From an uncultured bacterium (GTDB lineage: Bacteria; Patescibacteriota; JACMRA01), in NCBI GenBank assembly GCA_963784355.1, contig CAWAQU010000012.1, positions 135,760 to 199,759 of the forward strand: DNA of 64,000 bases, read 5' to 3'. The notes beneath the pieces are model-generated. The model saw nothing but the letters and a program-made list of their open reading frames with translations. It made no database searches and was not told where the DNA came from. This document shows positions 2,764 to 31,626 of the stretch, piece by piece (the first letter of the stretch is position 1; every line of letters starts with the position of its first letter). A program made the position numbers and the translations under genes.

Positions 2764-2863
2764 ATTAAATAAATTATGCTTTGCCCAGTTTGTAAAATCC
2801 CATTGAAATTAACATTAAATAAATTATGCTTTGCCCAGTTTGTAAAATCCCATTGAAATTAAC
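2764..2863 (+). repeat. perfect 50-bp tandem duplication covering the start of the zinc-ribbon gene
   Basis: attaaataaattatgctttgcccagtttgtaaaatcccattgaaattaac occurs at 2764-2813 and 2814-2863. Confidence 0.95.
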
Positions 2864-3134
2864 TTTTAGAGAGGATATTGAAATTGACTATTGTGAGCAG
2901 TGTAGGGGTGTTTGGTTAGATAGGGGTGAGCTTGATAAATTAATTGAAAAGTCAAAAAAATACGACAATCATACCTATAGTCAATCAGCTCCTGTACAAC
3001 CTCAGCAAGTAAATGATCACCATTATGCTGAACATAGAGACGATAAAAACCACCACAACCAATATCCACAACATGGCAAACCTCATAAAAAGAAAGATTC
3101 TTTTCTAGGGGATGTGTTTGATATCTTTGGTTAA
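2826..3134 (+). CDS. zf-TFIIB domain (zinc-ribbon) protein
   Basis: CPVC...EIDYCEQCRGVWLDRGELDKLI, His-rich tail and KKKDSFLGDVFD C-terminus typical of this family. Confidence 0.9.
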   Translation: MLCPVCKIPLKLTFREDIEIDYCEQCRGVWLDRGELDKLIEKSKKYDNHTYSQSAPVQPQQVNDHHYAEHRDDKNHHNQYPQHGKPHKKKDSFLGDVFDIFG

Positions 3135-3259
3135 TCAAAGTGCTTTAAGTAATACTTACCTTTTAAAAAGGAAGACAATGGGCTTAAGATAGTCCGAAAT
3201 TTTGTTATACCAAGTCACTTGGCACAAATTGATATATTAAAGCTCTTAGCCAAAGAAAA

Positions 3260-3487
3260 TTAATCCACTTTTTCTACTTCGCTGGACAGTTTCAAAACTT
3301 TATCTCCATCCTTTTGCTTGATCAATAGTGCCGGATTTTTTGAGCTTCCGTGTCTTGTAATTGTGCTGTCTTTAATTTCTTTTTCAATATCTTTTTCGTA
3401 AATCTCCATAACCTTTCCCTAAGCAGTTCCATTCCCCCATTTCCAAGATACTAAATCACCTTTTTGAATTTTATTTTTATTAGTCAT
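3260..3487 (-). pseudogene. DUF2945 / hypervirulence-associated Tudor-like protein with an in-frame TAG
   Basis: MTNKNKIQKGDLVSWKWGNGTA*GKVMEIYEKDIEKEIKDSTITRHGSSKNPALLIKQKDGDKVLKLSSEVEKVD; TAG at 3421-3419. Confidence 0.8.
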
Positions 3488-3764
3488 AGTAACTGCAGCT
3501 TAAAAAATTTCGATGCTTTTCGTCAATAATTTTTGTGTTTAATGTAGTTCTAGAATTACAAAGTATTTTTCAGACATTATCAATTTGATACGCCTACCTT
3601 TTTAAACAACTAGATAACATAAGGCTGGCTGATCTGATTATTATAGTTATACGAAGTAAATTTGATATTATTTTTACTAATTATGGATAGTTATAAGGCT
3701 ACATTTGTATTATAAAAGTAGCAATTTAATTATTTCATATATCATTCATATTCTAAAAAGTGAA

Positions 3765-3793
3765 TTGACAAAAGGTAATAAACTTTTTATATT
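3765..3793 (+). promoter_or_regulatory. sigma70 promoter, likely leaderless transcript of the LexA-like gene
   Basis: TTGACA (3765-3770), 17-nt spacer, TATATT (3788-3793); ATG follows 6 nt later. Confidence 0.6.
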
Positions 3794-3799
3794 CTATAC

Positions 3800-4408
3800 A
3801 TGTCTACAAACGATTTTAGATATCTCGAGCAGCGGCTTTTAGACGAGTTTAGCAAGCCTATGCATATGGGTATTTCTGAGCTTGCTACTGAGCTTGGCAT
3901 GAAAGACAATACAACACTTTTGTACCATATTCGTAAGCTTGTGAATGCAGGGTTCTTAATTAAGCTAAAGAAGGGAAGTTATAAAACATTGTTGAGTGTG
4001 AATACCGTAAATAGTAACATAATGGAAATACCCTTTTTTGGTAATGCCAGATGTGGAGATGGGGGAGAGTTACTTGAAGATTATCCTGACTACTATCTTC
4101 CAATGAGCACTCAAATGGTAAAACACAACTCTAAAGAATTATTTGCCTTGAAAGCTATAGGAGATTCTATGCGACCTGTAATTACTGAGGGTGATACTAT
4201 TATTGCTGAAAAATATACAAGTAATGTACCTGATAAAAAAAGTTTTTATGTGGTTACAAATAACCAAGAAGTATTGATAAAAAGAGTTTTATTTTCTAAA
4301 GATGGTAGCTTTTTACTTTCTACCAACCCTGAACACTTACCGATTCCTATTAATAAGGAAAATTTCAACATTGTCGGAAAAGTAGTAGGAGTATATAAAA
4401 ATTTTTAA
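3800..4408 (+). CDS. LexA/cI-like repressor (HTH + S24 autopeptidase)
   Basis: N-terminal HTH (ISELATELG...YHIRKLVNAGFL), IPFFGNARCG cleavage region, FALKAIGDSM (catalytic Ser), VLIKR (catalytic Lys), IVGKVVGV. Confidence 0.85.
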   Translation: MSTNDFRYLEQRLLDEFSKPMHMGISELATELGMKDNTTLLYHIRKLVNAGFLIKLKKGSYKTLLSVNTVNSNIMEIPFFGNARCGDGGELLEDYPDYYLPMSTQMVKHNSKELFALKAIGDSMRPVITEGDTIIAEKYTSNVPDKKSFYVVTNNQEVLIKRVLFSKDGSFLLSTNPEHLPIPINKENFNIVGKVVGVYKNF

Positions 4409-4445
4409 TAAATATTATGATTTACCAGACTAATTAACAATACTT

Positions 4446-4841
4446 ATGCCTACAGACACAAAAAATTTCTCACTATGGGTTAATCAAAAGACTGAATTAG
4501 AGCAAAATCTGTCCAGATTAAACTTTAGGGAAAGAGAAGTTTGGTCTTGTTACTGGGGCTGTAATATTGGATATGAATTAGATGGTAAAAGTGATTTTCT
4601 CCGCCCTATTTTAATTATTAAAAAAGTGAGCCCTGAGACTTTTTTGGCAGTACCTCTTACTAGTAGATTAAAAGATGGCTCCTGGTACCACAAGAGTAAT
4701 GTTGAGGGTAAAGAAGGAAGGTTTGTATTGCCGCAAATTAGAATGGTTGATGCAAAGCGGTTAAAATATTTTATTTCCAGGTTAAATGAAACTGACTTTA
4801 AAAGTGTCCGGCAAGCCTTTATAAAATTCATTATCTCTTAA
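4446..4841 (+). CDS. PemK/MazF-family toxin (endoribonuclease-like)
   Basis: FREREVWSCYWGCNIGYELDGKSDFLRPILIIKK...AVPLTS...LPQIRMVDAKRL. Confidence 0.85.
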   Translation: MPTDTKNFSLWVNQKTELEQNLSRLNFREREVWSCYWGCNIGYELDGKSDFLRPILIIKKVSPETFLAVPLTSRLKDGSWYHKSNVEGKEGRFVLPQIRMVDAKRLKYFISRLNETDFKSVRQAFIKFIIS

Positions 4842-4861
4842 AGTGTTGACTGAAATTAGGC

Positions 4862-4912
4862 AAAAAAAATACCTCCCGGTTGAGAGGAGGATCGGACTTA
4901 CGTCAAAACTAC
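4862..4912 (-). ncRNA. candidate small RNA convergent on the PemK gene
   Basis: Minus-strand TTGACA (4946-4941), 17 nt, TAATAT (4923-4918). Transcript contains a GAC-GUAA-GUC hairpin, then CCUCC-loop-GGAGG and a U-tract. Confidence 0.55.
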
Positions 4913-5141
4913 TTTTAATATTAGATTAAAATAATGAATTTGTCAAATATAAAATACTGAGCCTAAGGCAATTATATTCAAATAGAAATAAGGCTTAATA
5001 AAAAAAGATGGTCTATCAGACCAGTAAAATCAAGAGTATAATCTACTGTAGAGCTTGACTACATTTATTTTAAACATCCATATTAGCCTAGATAAAAAAC
5101 TAAAAAATATATTACCAAAATAATACATAACACAAAAATTT

Positions 5142-7214
5142 ATGATTACAAACTTTTTTAAAACTATTTTAACAGCTGCCCTAATTTTATTAATAGGAGT
5201 AGGCCTGTTTCCAGTTCAGGCAAAAGCTATGAGTGCTAACTGGCAAAAAGGAATCAGTATATATCCAGCTAACCAAACCGTTTATGGTAGTAGTGATTTT
5301 AGACAATCTCTTTCAAACTACGCACAAACTGGAGGCAATTTTTTCAATTTTGTGGTACCATACTATCAGGCTAACAAGTACTCAAGCGATTTTTACCCTG
5401 GAAATAGTACACCTACTGATGAATCTTTGATTTCAGGTATCAATTATGCGAAAAGTTTGGGTTTGCAAACTGGTATTAAAATATTTGCAGAGATAAGCAA
5501 TGGTGACTGGAGAGCAGCGATAGAAGCAAGTAATAACCTGGCCTGGTTTAGCAATTATGGTAAAATTGTTACAAAATATGGCCAGCTGGGTCAGCAATAT
5601 GGGGTCGAGATAATAACTATCGGCACAGAAATGATAGGTATGTCAATTCCCTCGAAAAATAGTAACAATACCCAGGGCTGGCTTGATATTATTGCAAATA
5701 CCAGAAAAGTTTATTCGGGTAAATTAACTTATGGCGCTACACACCTTGGTGGGCAGGATGATGAAAAAAATCTGATTCAGTTTTGGCCACAATTGGATTA
5801 CATAGGTATTACAGCCTATTTTCAGCTAGCGGATAGTGATATAGGAAATCCGGGGGTAGATTATTTCAAAAACGTTTGGAATACAATAAACAATGAGCAA
5901 ATAAAACCGCTCTACACTAAGTACAATAAGCCCATTATATTTGCTGAGGTGGGTTACGAAAGTATTAACGCTAGCTATATTAATCCAGGGGATTATACAA
6001 GAGATGGTCCGGTAAATACTGAACTTCAAGCCACACTATATGAGGCCCTATTTTCATATTTTAGTAATTACGATTATATTGCGGGTATACATTTATGGGA
6101 GTGGAATAGTAATCCTAACACTGGAGGTATAGGCAATAAAGATTTTACCCCTCAAAATAAGCCAGCTCAAAAAGTAATGGAATCTTGGTTTAAATTTGGA
6201 TCAAGTCCTACAAAATTAAGCTTTCAATCAACCACAACAGTACCAACTACAACCCCAACTCTAAATCAACCTGTACAAGTAAATAATGTAATCAAAAATA
6301 CATCAACCTCAGCAGGATCATCTTTAGTAGATATTGAAATATACAACCAACAAGGACAAAAAGTATTTCAACAATACTATGAAAATCAAGGCTTTACAGC
6401 AAATGAATCAAAAAACTACAACGTAACCTACACTCCAACAACTACAGGTACATATACAGTTAAAGTAGGAGTATTTGGAAGTGGTTGGAATCCTAATTAC
6501 ATCTGGGATGATAAGGCTGTTGAGTTTAATGTAACTAATCAAATTGTAGCTCCTCTGAAATTCACATCAACCACAACAGTACCAACTACAACCCCAACTC
6601 TAAATCAACCTGTACAAGTAAATAATGTAATCAAAAATACATCAACCTCAGCAGGATCATCTTTAGTAGATATTGAAATATACAACCAACAAGGACAAAA
6701 AGTATTTCAACAATACTATGAAAATCAAGGCTTTACAGCAAATGAATCAAAAAACTACAACGTAACCTACACTCCAACAACTACAGGTACATATACAGTT
6801 AAAGTAGGAGTATTTGGAAGTGGTTGGAATCCTAATTACATCTGGGATGATAAGGCTGTTGAGTTTAATGTAACTAATCAAATTGTAGCTCCTCTGAAAT
6901 TCACATCAACCACAACAGTACCAACTACAACCCCAACTCTAAATCAACCTGTACAAGTAAATAATGTAATCAAAAATACATCAACCTCAGCAGGATCATC
7001 TTTAGTAGATATTGAAATATACAACCAACAAGGACAAAAAGTATTTCAACAATACTATGAAAATCAAGGCTTTACAGCAAATGAATCAAAAAACTACAAC
7101 GTAACCTACACTCCAACAACTACAGGTACATATACAGTTAAAGTAGGAGTATTTGGAAGTGGTTGGAATCCTAATTACATCTGGGATGATAAGGCTGTTG
7201 AGTTTAGAATATAA
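5142..7214 (+). CDS. secreted glycoside hydrolase family 113-like protein with three C-terminal Ig-like repeats
   Basis: Signal peptide, TPTDESL, WRAAI, IGTEM (acid/base Glu), FWPQLDYIGITAY, PIIFAEVGY (nucleophile Glu), FTPQNKPA; three 113-aa repeats follow. Confidence 0.85.
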   Translation: MITNFFKTILTAALILLIGVGLFPVQAKAMSANWQKGISIYPANQTVYGSSDFRQSLSNYAQTGGNFFNFVVPYYQANKYSSDFYPGNSTPTDESLISGINYAKSLGLQTGIKIFAEISNGDWRAAIEASNNLAWFSNYGKIVTKYGQLGQQYGVEIITIGTEMIGMSIPSKNSNNTQGWLDIIANTRKVYSGKLTYGATHLGGQDDEKNLIQFWPQLDYIGITAYFQLADSDIGNPGVDYFKNVWNTINNEQIKPLYTKYNKPIIFAEVGYESINASYINPGDYTRDGPVNTELQATLYEALFSYFSNYDYIAGIHLWEWNSNPNTGGIGNKDFTPQNKPAQKVMESWFKFGSSPTKLSFQSTTTVPTTTPTLNQPVQVNNVIKNTSTSAGSSLVDIEIYNQQGQKVFQQYYENQGFTANESKNYNVTYTPTTTGTYTVKVGVFGSGWNPNYIWDDKAVEFNVTNQIVAPLKFTSTTTVPTTTPTLNQPVQVNNVIKNTSTSAGSSLVDIEIYNQQGQKVFQQYYENQGFTANESKNYNVTYTPTTTGTYTVKVGVFGSGWNPNYIWDDKAVEFNVTNQIVAPLKFTSTTTVPTTTPTLNQPVQVNNVIKNTSTSAGSSLVDIEIYNQQGQKVFQQYYENQGFTANESKNYNVTYTPTTTGTYTVKVGVFGSGWNPNYIWDDKAVEFRI
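6227..7206 (+). repeat. 339-bp tandem repeat, ~2.9 copies, identical by eye
   Basis: Units start at 6227, 6566 and 6905; they encode STTTVPTTTPTLNQPVQV...WDDKAVEF. Confidence 0.95.
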
Positions 7215-29575: not shown

Positions 29576-30705
29576 AATATAGCTATTCTACAAGTTTTAT
29601 CATTTGTAATATTTGTCCAAGCTTCTAGTTTAGCATCTTTTTTGATATCGCTATTTATTTTACAATTAGCCACTGTGAATATAGCTGTTGTAGAAGTTTG
29701 TGAAGTTACACCAGTTGTACTGGTAGGCTGATATTTAACTACAACTGTGTTTGTATCACTAGAAACTGCTAATAATTTAGTGACTGTGACATCAGCACTA
29801 AACTTTACTACTTCTGTAAAATTTTTATTTGTGAGTGGGGGAAGTCCTCCCAATTTTTTATTTATATAAACGAAAACCGGACTATATTCACTATTTTTAA
29901 ATTTTTTACAATTAGCTTCATCTAACTCGGGTATAATTATCTGCTGACAAGGTTGTTCTAGCTTTCTTATATCTTCAAGTTGTTTTTTAGCATTGGTGTC
30001 GATAGGACTATTGGTGGAATGATTCGCCACATAATTGGCTAAAGTAAATAATTCAGTTGGTGTGTCAACATTAGCTGGTGGTGCAGTAGGGTTTAGATAT
30101 TCCTCTTTAGTTGTTTTGGTTATATCAGTCGGAGTTGTAGGAGTGGTTGGTGTAGTTGTGTCAGTGCCTCCCCCTGGAGGAGTAGTACCAGTGGTAGTAC
30201 CTCCACTTGGTGGTGTGGTTGGGCTTGTCGTCGTGTTACCCCCCCCTAGATTACCTAAATTGAATATTTGCAGACTGAGAGTTGTGGGATTTACAACTGA
30301 TAAAATTATAGCTGGAGAGATTAAAAGTACTACACCTATGCTTATATCTCTGATTGCAGTTACGGAATTTTTTATGGCATCTCCGTCACTATTAGGATTT
30401 AAACTGTTAAATGCAGCAAAAGCGACTCTAAATACAATTAAAAATAAGGCTACAACAAAGGCAAATGTCATGACTTGCTTGATACACTTCCCAAAGATTT
30501 CAGTACCTCCCTTTGGATTGTCTTGTATGCTACTGTAATCACAGCCTGTAAAACCGCCGACACCACTAGCTCCGGTGTTTTGGGCGTAAATAGGCTTGGG
30601 AATTGCTACACTCAAAAACAAAAGTCCTAGCATTGCAAAACAGACTAGTTTGTTTAAAGCCCTAGCATATTTCTTTACTTTCGCATGTACAGAGTCAAAT
30701 GTCAT
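29572..30705 (-). CDS. TrbC/VirB2-like pilin-domain protein with T/P/G-rich linker and C-terminal extension
   Basis: Signal peptide, Cys pair, two TM helices separated by a K-containing loop ending ILSVVNP, as in CPR pilin-like proteins. Confidence 0.6.
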   Translation of the reverse strand: MTFDSVHAKVKKYARALNKLVCFAMLGLLFLSVAIPKPIYAQNTGASGVGGFTGCDYSSIQDNPKGGTEIFGKCIKQVMTFAFVVALFLIVFRVAFAAFNSLNPNSDGDAIKNSVTAIRDISIGVVLLISPAIILSVVNPTTLSLQIFNLGNLGGGNTTTSPTTPPSGGTTTGTTPPGGGTDTTTPTTPTTPTDITKTTKEEYLNPTAPPANVDTPTELFTLANYVANHSTNSPIDTNAKKQLEDIRKLEQPCQQIIIPELDEANCKKFKNSEYSPVFVYINKKLGGLPPLTNKNFTEVVKFSADVTVTKLLAVSSDTNTVVVKYQPTSTTGVTSQTSTTAIFTVANCKINSDIKKDAKLEAWTNITNDKTCRIAIL

Positions 30706-30831
30706 TACAGTAGATATAATAATATGTTTCTATTGTAGCTAGCTTTTTAGTTTTTAGCAAGTTTTGCTTGACAAACCCGCAGTTTTCCTTTTAGTCTTGT
30801 GGTGTCTGATTTTTTGAGTTAATTTTTTATA

Positions 30832-31203
30832 ATGAAAGTCTACACATTTAAACATAATTTAAATAAGAACGAAAATAAAGTAAGAGAAAGAGCAGGGGTT
30901 TTAGGATTTAATTTTGCATTTGCTAATCAAAAAAATAGTAGACGTAGAAATAACTATAAAACATTTGGCAACTCTAGCTTACTGGAAAATAGTTTTTTAT
31001 TTCAAGTTTTGGCTATATTTGGTTTAACAATAGCTGTATTTTTGTCAGTGCAAGGTATTTTTAATACAGGAAACGATGCAAACATAGCTACGGCAAAAGC
31101 AGCTAACGAAAATGTTAAATTGATCATTAATTATAATACCTCAAGTATAAACTCAACAATCCTGGAAGATAACTCCAAAGTGATTGAAATGCCCCAGCCT
31201 TAA
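30832..31203 (+). CDS. single-pass membrane hypothetical protein
   Basis: Basic N-terminus and one TM helix. Confidence 0.65.
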   Translation: MKVYTFKHNLNKNENKVRERAGVLGFNFAFANQKNSRRRNNYKTFGNSSLLENSFLFQVLAIFGLTIAVFLSVQGIFNTGNDANIATAKAANENVKLIINYNTSSINSTILEDNSKVIEMPQP

Positions 31204-31247: not shown

Positions 31248-31332
31248 GCCCAGGTGGTGAAATGGTAGACACGCAAGGTTTAGGACCTTGTGCCTTAACG
31301 GTGTGAGGGTTCGAGTCCCTCCTTGGGCACCA
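31248..31332 (+). tRNA. tRNA-Leu(TAG)
   Basis: caagg-ttTAGga-ccttg, long variable arm, encoded CCA. Confidence 0.95.
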
Positions 31333-31357
31333 AGTTTTACAGTTTAATATTTTTTCT

Positions 31358-31431
31358 GCGGATATGATTTAGTGGTAGAATACGACCTTCCCAAGGTTGA
31401 TGTGGGGGTCCGATTCCCCCTATCCGCTCCA
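31358..31431 (+). tRNA. tRNA-Gly(CCC)
   Basis: gcggata acceptor stem, cgacc-ttCCCaa-ggttg, T-loop TCCGATT, encoded CCA. Confidence 0.9.
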
Positions 31432-31442
31432 AGTTAATAAAT

Positions 31443-31528
31443 GCGGTTGTGGTGAAATGGTAGACACGCTACCTTGAGGTGGTAGTGAGAGTTTTCTCGT
31501 GGAGGTTCAAATCCTCTCGACCGCACCA
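31443..31528 (+). tRNA. tRNA-Leu(GAG)
   Basis: ctacc-ttGAGgt-ggtag, long variable arm, encoded CCA. Confidence 0.95.
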
Positions 31529-31540
31529 ATTAAAAACTAT

Positions 31541-31626
31541 GCCGTGGTGGTGGAATGGTAGACACGCTGGACTCAAAATCCAGTGGTAGCAATACCGTGA
31601 GGGTTCAAGTCCCTCCCGCGGCACCA
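31541..31626 (+). tRNA. tRNA-Leu(CAA)
   Basis: ctgga-ctCAAaa-tccag, long variable arm, encoded CCA. Confidence 0.95.

Follow-up and report, generated by a model that had tools for sequence, protein, structure and literature searches.

The Toxin Gene and the Convergent RNA Unit

The window analyzed here is a stretch of 64,000 nucleotides (nt) from an uncultured bacterium of the Patescibacteriota (G000:C12:135760-199759; source genome of 1.14 Mb in 13 contigs). Near its start lies a plus-strand gene (4446..4841) for a PemK/MazF-like endoribonuclease of 131 residues, assigned by Pfam, predicted fold and profile comparison, and the 300-nt spacer between this toxin gene and a GH113 glycosidase gene (start 5142, plus strand) is occupied by a putative small RNA gene that runs on the minus strand toward the toxin. 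A preliminary description of this DNA had placed a promoter, a GNRA-capped hairpin and a terminator here, and we found all three on the minus strand at 4946-4862.

The putative promoter (4918..4946, minus strand) comprises a -35 hexamer, TTGACA (4946-4941), a 17-nt spacer and a -10 hexamer, TAATAT (4923-4918), and agrees with the consensus at 10 of 12 positions. It is of the sigma-70 type, with both hexamers at a spacing of 16-18 nt and kept in relatives, and its activity is predicted only. The position of the -10 box suggests a start near 4911 and a predicted RNA of ~50 nt (4862..4911, minus strand). In the RNA fold, hairpin 1 (GAC-GUAA-GUC, 3 bp; 4895..4904, minus strand) begins ~13 nt past the -10 box and is separated by the linker CGAU from hairpin 2 (CCUCC-UCUCAACCG-GGAGG; 4872..4890, minus strand). 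The latter is the stem of an intrinsic terminator-like site on the same strand, with 6 pairs (4 of them G-C) and a 7-nt loop, followed by the U-rich tail UAUUUUUUUU (4862..4871), and U8 closes the predicted RNA at 4862. As the preliminary description had it, the RNA in the window ends ~20 nt from the toxin stop codon (the U-run stops 20 nt off), does not overlap the toxin coding sequence and holds no open reading frame (ORF) of its own, the sole entry across the unit among listed ORFs of at least 25 residues being a plus-strand frame of 28 residues (4843-4929). By a repetition search the toxin-to-GH113 spacer is single-copy in its genome, and Tandem Repeats Finder, applied to 3400-5200, reported only an 11-nt repeat of 2.1 copies at 5150-5172.

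Judged on its own sequence, the RNA unit does not exceed chance. The 2-kb region contains 13 promoter-like sites, compared with 10.3 ± 3.3 in shuffled sequences, and three terminator-like sites, compared with 0.8 ± 0.9. The 51-nt RNA folds at -10.5 kcal/mol (z -0.80), a value equaled in 36 of 200 shuffles, and the fold of the whole 300-nt spacer (z -0.51) has no significance. A permissive search with the Rfam 15 models (E ≤ 10) gave no match at the RNA unit or in 19 related loci. We nevertheless accept the unit as real, because comparison shows the same convergent unit, with covariation, behind homologous toxin genes.

The toxin itself is a MazF-type protein by three lines of evidence. Its sole Pfam match at E ≤ 0.1 is PemK_toxin (E 1.2e-7, residues 48-128). 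An AlphaFold2 model from an 18-sequence alignment (predicted local distance difference test, pLDDT, 83.6) shows a helix at residues 4-21, a MazF-type barrel and a C-terminal helix, and its best PDB matches by Foldseek are the MazF proteins of S. aureus, B. subtilis and M. tuberculosis together with CcdB (template modeling, TM, scores 0.55-0.72), with S. aureus and B. subtilis MazF (TM 0.6-0.7) in front; there is no ToxN among the fold matches listed. A profile of the toxin family, compared with the PDB, matches MazF, EndoA and PemK proteins throughout. What sets the protein apart from canonical MazF is an N-terminal helix region of ~25 residues, which the latter lacks: the alignment of the family profile with S. 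aureus MazF does not begin until profile position 21. Beyond this point the motif GxE..G.RPV and the C-terminal IR.lD.kRL are in register between the two, and we take the catalytic arginine of MazF to lie within these aligned motifs.

The start codons of the toxin genes at 17 loci are not preceded by a Shine-Dalgarno-like sequence, and many stand in an A/U-rich context (...UUUAUG); at one locus (L004) TATAAT lies 3 nt before the toxin ATG. This suggests that the toxin may be translated from a leaderless or otherwise non-Shine-Dalgarno message.

Conservation, Covariation and Gene Context

Homologs of the toxin were found by tblastn in 16 of 41 related genomes; within the taxonomic family f1, 15 of 24 other genomes have them, often in multiple copies (up to eight per genome). 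We compared the 220 nt downstream of 19 of these genes, leaving out one whose toxin is cut by a contig end (L008). The sequence TGTCAA, i.e., the -35 hexamer TTGACA read on the opposite strand, stands at a similar distance behind the toxin in 18 of the 19 loci, the exception being L013, and the full convergent unit is present in 17, consistent with the earlier claim that the RNA gene is self-contained. Behind the -35 hexamer and a -10-like box, the shared layout continues with a leader rich in U, a short hairpin and, past a brief linker that usually contains CG, a G+C-rich hairpin with pyrimidines in its 5′ arm, from which the U-rich tail extends up to or into the toxin stop codon. The two loci outside this group are L013, which is without any part of the unit, and the aberrant L017, in which the toxin is fused into a 411-residue ORF; both were left out of alignments A1 and A2. 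TTGAC is invariant in all 17 aligned units, while the stems change in pairs: hairpin 1 occurs as GAC/GUC, GCC/GGC, GGC/GCC and CGGG/CCCG, and hairpin 2 as CCUCC/GGAGG, CCCUC/GAGGG, CCCCC/GGGGG and CCUUC/GAAGG.

A covariance model (R1) built from these 17 RNAs was searched over the 41 genomes and its matches cross-tabulated with those of the toxin. At E ≤ 1e-6, 25 of the 33 RNA matches closely follow a toxin match in convergent orientation, with a gap of at most 30 nt in 24 cases and of 151 nt in one; at E ≤ 1e-3, 34 of 52 are convergent behind a toxin. The window copy is matched at G000:C12:140621-140674 (window 4862-4915), a sequence that belonged to the training set of the model. Conversely, 38 of 46 toxin matches have the RNA, ~21 of these places being outside the training set, and among the eight that do not are one toxin truncated at a contig end, two fragments of pseudogenes, the upstream copy of a tandem pair, the fused L017, and L013.

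Further copies were noted in passing. The source genome has a strong RNA copy (L024, G000:C3:14667-14722) behind a second toxin paralog (C3:14248-14637), and at L018 (G018:C1:1113502-1116894) three RNA units within 1.3 kb, all on one strand, are interleaved with two tandem toxin paralogs. At L011 there is a second RNA-like unit at 1235-1288, and a tRNA gene (2014-2087) located ~130 nt beyond the toxin and RNA module may mark an integration hot spot. A synteny comparison with the same-genus genome G001 gave no match to window 2800-6200, and the related-locus search confirmed no relative in the wider named genomes.

The fold of the RNA is maintained as its sequence changes. In the f1 covariation set (32 model matches, 30 distinct sequences), all 11 base pairs have changed on both sides (4 of 4 in hairpin 1, 7 of 7 in hairpin 2), and 93.3% of cells are paired, compared with 45-55% when the partner column is slid by one to three columns. 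The covariation score is 0.709, against 0.06-0.20 for the slid alignments, and was reached in none of 500 shuffles; the homologous four-pair helix of hairpin 1 is 98.3% paired in the 30 distinct sequences. Beyond f1, the 41 matches of a broader model (R3, see below) have 81.2% of their cells paired (46-57% slid) and the score is 0.470 (at most 0.135 slid), again reached in none of 500 shuffles. The search for covariation behind homologous toxins had been proposed in the preliminary description, and its outcome is in line with the structure described there.

The same data point to the convergent (minus) strand as the one from which the RNA would act. Promoters and U-runs sit on that strand, and the loop of hairpin 2 is of the GNRA type there in 19 of the 30 sequences (GAAA in 10, GCAA in eight, GUAA in one), loops that would read UUUC or UUGC on the toxin strand. 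Read on the convergent strand, the stems contain 13 G-U pairs and five A-C mismatches; outside f1, hairpin 1 is most often closed by a G-U pair.

To survey the phylum, we searched 401 sampled genomes with toxin profile A4, which matched in 59 at E ≤ 1e-5, a few of these being canonical MazF; the weak, shorter matches, which begin at profile position 19 or later, are canonical MazF without the N-terminal extension. Added to the comparison were 48 extension-bearing loci from other families and nine loci with canonical MazF, and one locus (L064) was dropped from the detector tests as a duplicate of L013. The detector requires, on the convergent strand and within ~170 nt of the toxin end, motifs resembling the -35 and -10 boxes and, after them, one short and one G+C-rich hairpin. 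It was positive at 54 of 67 extension-bearing loci (a few of the 54 picks being mis-registered) and at none of the nine canonical MazF loci. Control rates were low: 3 of 67 for the same DNA read on the toxin strand, 3 of 67 and 6 of 67 for the two strands of the upstream region, and 2 of 67 for shuffled sequence. A broad covariance model (R3) was built from 50 cores; the underlying alignment (A6) left out 17 loci with the N-terminal extension, at which the finder had missed or mis-assigned hairpins, and the nine canonical loci. R3 matches on site in 40 of the 48 loci outside f1, with one further match off site (L097:134-181), and in none of the nine canonical MazF loci. The preliminary description had tied the RNA to a PemK toxin that lacks an antitoxin gene, and the proportions given above (25 of 33; 54 of 67 against 0 of 9) agree with it. 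As judged from these comparisons, the small RNA gene is real, conserved and specifically tied to this toxin subfamily.

Families other than f1 usually have the core ACAAAU-GGC(C)-UUCG-(G)GCC-UC(C)G(AG)-hairpin 2. The RNA comes in two forms. In the short form (~45-55 nt), found in f1, including the window copy, and in many other families, the U-run directly follows hairpin 2. In the long form (~90-100 nt), found in about ten loci (L068, L069, L071, L094, L097, L098, L104, L109, L120, L125), hairpin 2 is followed by an A-rich stretch and then by a third, longer hairpin with its U-run, which spans the toxin stop codon or falls within the last toxin codons. The predicted long form is, by its position, cis-antisense to the toxin coding end. 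At one further locus (L108) the toxin stop codon lies inside hairpin 2.

There is no MazE/AbrB/PemI gene beside the window toxin. The gene directly upstream (3800..4408, plus strand) encodes a LexA-like protein of 202 residues with a helix-turn-helix domain and a Peptidase_S24 domain (Pfam E 1.3e-21) and ends 37 nt before the toxin gene. Pfam was run on neighbors for the window only, and the other loci were judged from the ORF listing. By eye, from N-terminal sequences, such a protein adjoins the toxin in only 3 of the 19 loci (L002, L013, L015), the window's own among them, being directly upstream on the same strand in L015 and divergent in L013. On account of this rarity we rejected it as a protein antitoxin; there is a possibility that, in lineages with a LexA-like neighbor, toxin transcription is damage-inducible. 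The ORF listing, also examined by eye, revealed no recurrent protein antitoxin or small ORF family upstream of the toxin in the 19 f1 loci.

Also between the plus-strand toxin and GH113 genes there is a second minus-strand terminator-like site, TGGUCUGAUAGACCA followed by UCUUUUUUUA, at 5023-5009. It is preceded by a hydrophobic minus-strand ORF of 32 residues (5030-5128, MYYFGNIFFSFLSRLIWMFKINVVKLYSRLYS), and the two could constitute a gene for a small membrane peptide or be a chance occurrence in A+T-rich DNA. The GH113 glycosidase (5142-7214, plus strand) has a signal-like N-terminus and three near-identical Ig/filamin-like repeats of ~113 residues, with identical short ORFs at 6266, 6605 and 6944, i.e., at a period of 339 nt. 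Four tRNA genes (Leu-tag, Gly-ccc, Leu-gag, Leu-caa) lie on the plus strand at 31248-31626.

Candidate Roles of the RNA

The preliminary description put the RNA forward as a candidate antitoxin, and an antitoxin role is also, in our view, the best reading of the sequence data. With somewhat better than even confidence we propose that the ~50-nt convergent RNA is the antitoxin of the adjacent MazF/PemK-fold RNase and acts as a cis-antisense RNA, i.e., by a type I-like mechanism on a type II-like toxin. The small RNA would be transcribed constitutively. The toxin gene would lack a terminator of its own, so that the toxin mRNA would run through both hairpins and the small RNA would be perfectly complementary to its 3′ end. 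The complementary hairpin loops would then pair, leading to a duplex of ~45 bp or more, and cleavage of the duplex by RNase III, which is encoded in the source genome, would destabilize or silence the toxin message. We infer in this scheme the transcription of either strand, the toxicity of the protein, the read-through of the toxin mRNA in the window, and the pairing and RNase III step. Antisense action is favored because the RNA is by construction complementary to any toxin transcript that passes the stop codon, because no plus-strand terminator was found in 3500-5500, because the long form overlaps the toxin coding end, and because the genome encodes RNase III. The overlap in relatives also fails to bear out the preliminary description, which had held the RNA not to be a classic antisense type I RNA: although this RNA stops short of the coding sequence in the window, its tail reaches the stop codon in most relatives, and in one subgroup the terminator lies inside the 3′ coding end of the toxin.

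Retention of the RNA after the toxin has decayed fits the logic of toxin-antitoxin systems, in which the antidote outlasts the poison. At L054 (G016:C25) the RNA lies behind an ORF of 52 residues that is, by profile, the C-terminal end of a toxin, and further copies lie behind broken toxin genes (G002:C79, G018 at 465 kb and 512 kb, G014:C87). At L053 (G022) the RNA is intact between a peroxiredoxin and a permease gene and the toxin ORF is gone, while at L006 in the congeneric G018 the same two genes flank both toxin and RNA; evidence for the deletion comes chiefly from the ORF map, and in the L006-L053 alignment only the first ~100 columns were useful.

Several points weigh against an antisense antitoxin. 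Because the models were built on sequences next to toxins and the alignments follow the models, the counts of paired positions are inflated; the sequences compared are also kin, with the consequence that the shuffle tests overstate significance. The window RNA stops 20 nt short of the toxin stop codon, which makes antisense action there dependent on read-through of the toxin mRNA, and it is not obvious what need an antisense RNA would have of a conserved two-hairpin core. There is no extra complementarity of the small RNA to the toxin 5′ region (cognate -13.46, non-cognate -13.23 kcal/mol). Eight of the 33 strongest RNA matches are without an adjacent tblastn match to the toxin, and some copies face unrelated genes: DUF6978 and DUF1828/1829 genes (L035), a Schlafen AlbA_2 gene (L052), a gene with a weak DUF1877 match (L042) and a methyltransferase-like gene (L022). 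Given such copies, the RNA might have a function of its own.

A separate proposal, that the CCUCC arm of hairpin 2 masks the ribosome-binding site of the toxin mRNA, was dropped, as the toxin 5′ region shows no cognate excess.

In a rival reading, the one toward which the preliminary description leaned, the system would be type III-like or hybrid: the folded RNA would itself dock onto the MazF-fold toxin and inhibit it as a pseudo-substrate or decoy, with no need to pair with mRNA. Across the phylum the stem sequences vary freely, while the core of two hairpins persists together with short unpaired stretches, namely the U-rich/ACAAAU leader and the C or CG after hairpin 1. This pattern resembles recognition by shape, and the short-form RNA, including that of the window, does not overlap the coding region. 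In addition, MazF proteins bind single-stranded RNA (the MazF-RNA complex 4mdx is among the fold matches), and this toxin subfamily carries an extra N-terminal helix whose role is unexplained. We nonetheless consider direct binding unlikely: the toxin is not of the ToxN/AbiQ type, neither repeats nor an upstream, same-strand layout are present, few unpaired positions are nearly invariant, and the overlap of long-form relatives with the toxin coding end would be needless for a pure protein binder. Similarly doubtful is its bolder version, in which a single-copy two-hairpin RNA, inhibiting a MazF-fold RNase directly at the level of the protein or serving as antisense and decoy combined, would represent a new class of RNA antitoxin that replaces MazE across the toxin subfamily, with the N-terminal helix as its RNA-docking element.

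It is also conceivable, if distinctly improbable, that the unit is an insulator, a strong convergent promoter plus terminator that stops or collides with toxin read-through, or shields the toxin gene from transcription arriving from outside, and whose RNA has no target. The unit is always found at a gene's 3′ end, directed into that gene; unrelated genes are among those it follows, and the lack of a detectable plus-strand terminator after the toxin gene would suit this role. One toxin-free copy in the source genome (L022, G000:C10:32560-32613) resembles a plain terminator, as the motif directly follows a same-strand ORF of 77 residues downstream of a ParA-like gene; no -35 hexamer is visible before it. 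An insulator, however, would not need hairpin 1 for termination, yet this hairpin covaries at all four of its pairs; nor would it be expected to be tied to one toxin subfamily, with none of the canonical MazF loci positive in the detector, or to be kept after decay of the toxin. Finally, that the hairpins act on the plus strand as a stabilizer or terminator at the 3′ end of the toxin mRNA, or as a DNA site for cassette movement, the minus-strand promoter being incidental, is highly improbable: the stem arms do read CCUCC...GGAGG on either strand, and unit and toxin seem to travel together between unrelated neighborhoods, but the strand bias of the detector (54 compared with 3 of 67), the GNRA or UUCG loops and the U-runs after the stem, both confined to the convergent strand, the excess of G-U pairs over A-C mismatches, and the invariant TTGAC at fixed spacing all speak against it.

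In place of a protein partner, a whole toxin subfamily has beside it a small, convergent RNA gene whose fold is conserved and covaries, in a module of only ~500 bp. If the RNA is an antitoxin, a common toxin fold would cross the boundary between toxin-antitoxin types, many annotated "orphan" MazF genes would not be orphans, and reduced genomes would gain an easily recognized RNA family, one unmatched by Rfam 15 at the site and the 19 loci. Relatives of the toxin extend to plasmids of the Campylobacterota and to a Campylobacter prophage.

Comparison With Known Systems

MazF and PemK are textbook type II toxins, neutralized by a MazE-type protein. The core of the window toxin is alike, its GxE..G.RPV and IR.lD.kRL motifs aligning with those of S. 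aureus MazF; it differs in having no MazE/AbrB gene upstream and in its extra N-terminal helix. MazF genes on Bacteroides plasmids, which have an annotated MazE/AbrB partner, match the window toxin only from residue 31, and the canonical MazF genes of the same phylum (nine loci) are without the RNA unit.

The preliminary description drew an analogy to type III systems (ToxIN, CptIN, TenpIN), in which an RNA neutralizes an endoribonuclease with a distant fold relationship to MazF/Kid. The comparison does not support this analogy. The type III antitoxin is an array of tandem repeats located upstream on the same strand and cut by the toxin into units, whereas the window RNA is a single unit, downstream, convergent and without repeats. 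The toxin, in turn, is a PemK protein by Pfam with MazF as its best fold match, agreeing with its profile and with the absence of ToxN from the fold matches listed, and does not belong with ToxN/AbiQ, CptN or TenpN.

The Rfam motif RF02913 ("pemK"), likewise a small structured RNA, takes its name from its occurrence with pemK genes; it stems from a study of 224 candidates (PMC5737381) and is absent from the main text searched. With this model (gathering threshold 34.8 bits) there was no match at E ≤ 10 at the site or in the 19 related loci and none in 21 related genomes, the controls being equally silent (0 of 14).

Antisense control of a nuclease-type protein toxin has precedents in the type I systems SymE/SymR and RalR/RalA of E. 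coli, in which the antisense RNA is cis-encoded. SymE is under LexA control and has an AbrB/MazE fold, and SymR overlaps the 5′ end of symE. The LexA-like gene just upstream of the window toxin is a likeness to SymE/SymR; the MazF fold is a difference, and there is no sequence relationship.

The arrangement had been described as a new toxin-antitoxin architecture. This claim is countered by type I systems with a convergent 3′ overlap, such as txpA/RatA, bsrG/SR4 and bsrE/SR5 of Bacillus subtilis. The small RNA of these systems, driven by a strong promoter of its own, runs toward the toxin and shows complementarity to the 3′ end of the toxin's mRNA; the overlap contains terminator stem-loops, and RNase III-dependent decay usually follows. 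The window likewise has a convergent RNA gene with its own predicted promoter, and its source genome encodes RNase III. The B. subtilis toxins, however, are hydrophobic peptides of <60 residues with an overlap of 75-125 nt, whereas the toxin here is a soluble MazF-fold RNase of 131 residues, and the overlap in the window would comprise ~45 nt of 3′ flank and no coding region.

A second challenge to the novelty of the architecture comes from plasmids and phages. A search of these found full-length, extension-bearing toxin homologs on Nitratiruptor and Helicobacter plasmids, on plasmid pVir of Campylobacter jejuni 81-176, and in Campylobacter CJIE4 prophages. By eye, the opposite strand behind each of the Campylobacterota homologs carries a -10 box and then between one and three hairpins, and the series closes within a few nt of the stop codon with a C-rich/G-rich hairpin. 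These units are longer than that of the window, with two to three hairpins before the last one, and the likeness is one of layout judged by eye, as the covariance models (including R3) found nothing above noise at four Campylobacterota loci (pVir not among them). Behind the homologs in Brevibacillus (L088) and C. coli (L083) no such unit was seen.

Shen et al. (2016, Mol Microbiol 101:909, PMID 27291507) reportedly described an RNA-antitoxin pair, cjrA/cjpT, on pVir. The sole PemK/MazF-family ORF of this plasmid (30634-31038) has 30% identity to the window toxin over residues 1-121 (E 5e-14), in an alignment that starts at residue 1 and thus includes the N-terminal extension. It is followed by 860 nt without an annotated gene, in which the opposite strand carries TTGATT-17-TATAAT and then hairpins, the last of which (CCCCG...CGGGG) ends 7 nt from the stop codon. 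Pfam revealed no second recognizable toxin-antitoxin pair among nine other pVir ORFs. In the parts of the literature searched, a MazF/PemK toxin with an RNA antitoxin is not described beyond brief mentions of cjrA, and those mentions do not refer to a phylum-wide RNA family or a conserved core (PMC7826846, PMC10470494). They present CjrA as the antisense RNA antitoxin of a type I system, so that pVir is reported to carry a protein toxin under antisense-RNA control (PMC7826846, PMC10470494), as we propose for our module. The ORF at 30634-31038 could be virT, the other toxin of pVir, or it may be cjpT, in which case cjrA/cjpT and the unit in the window might be the same module.

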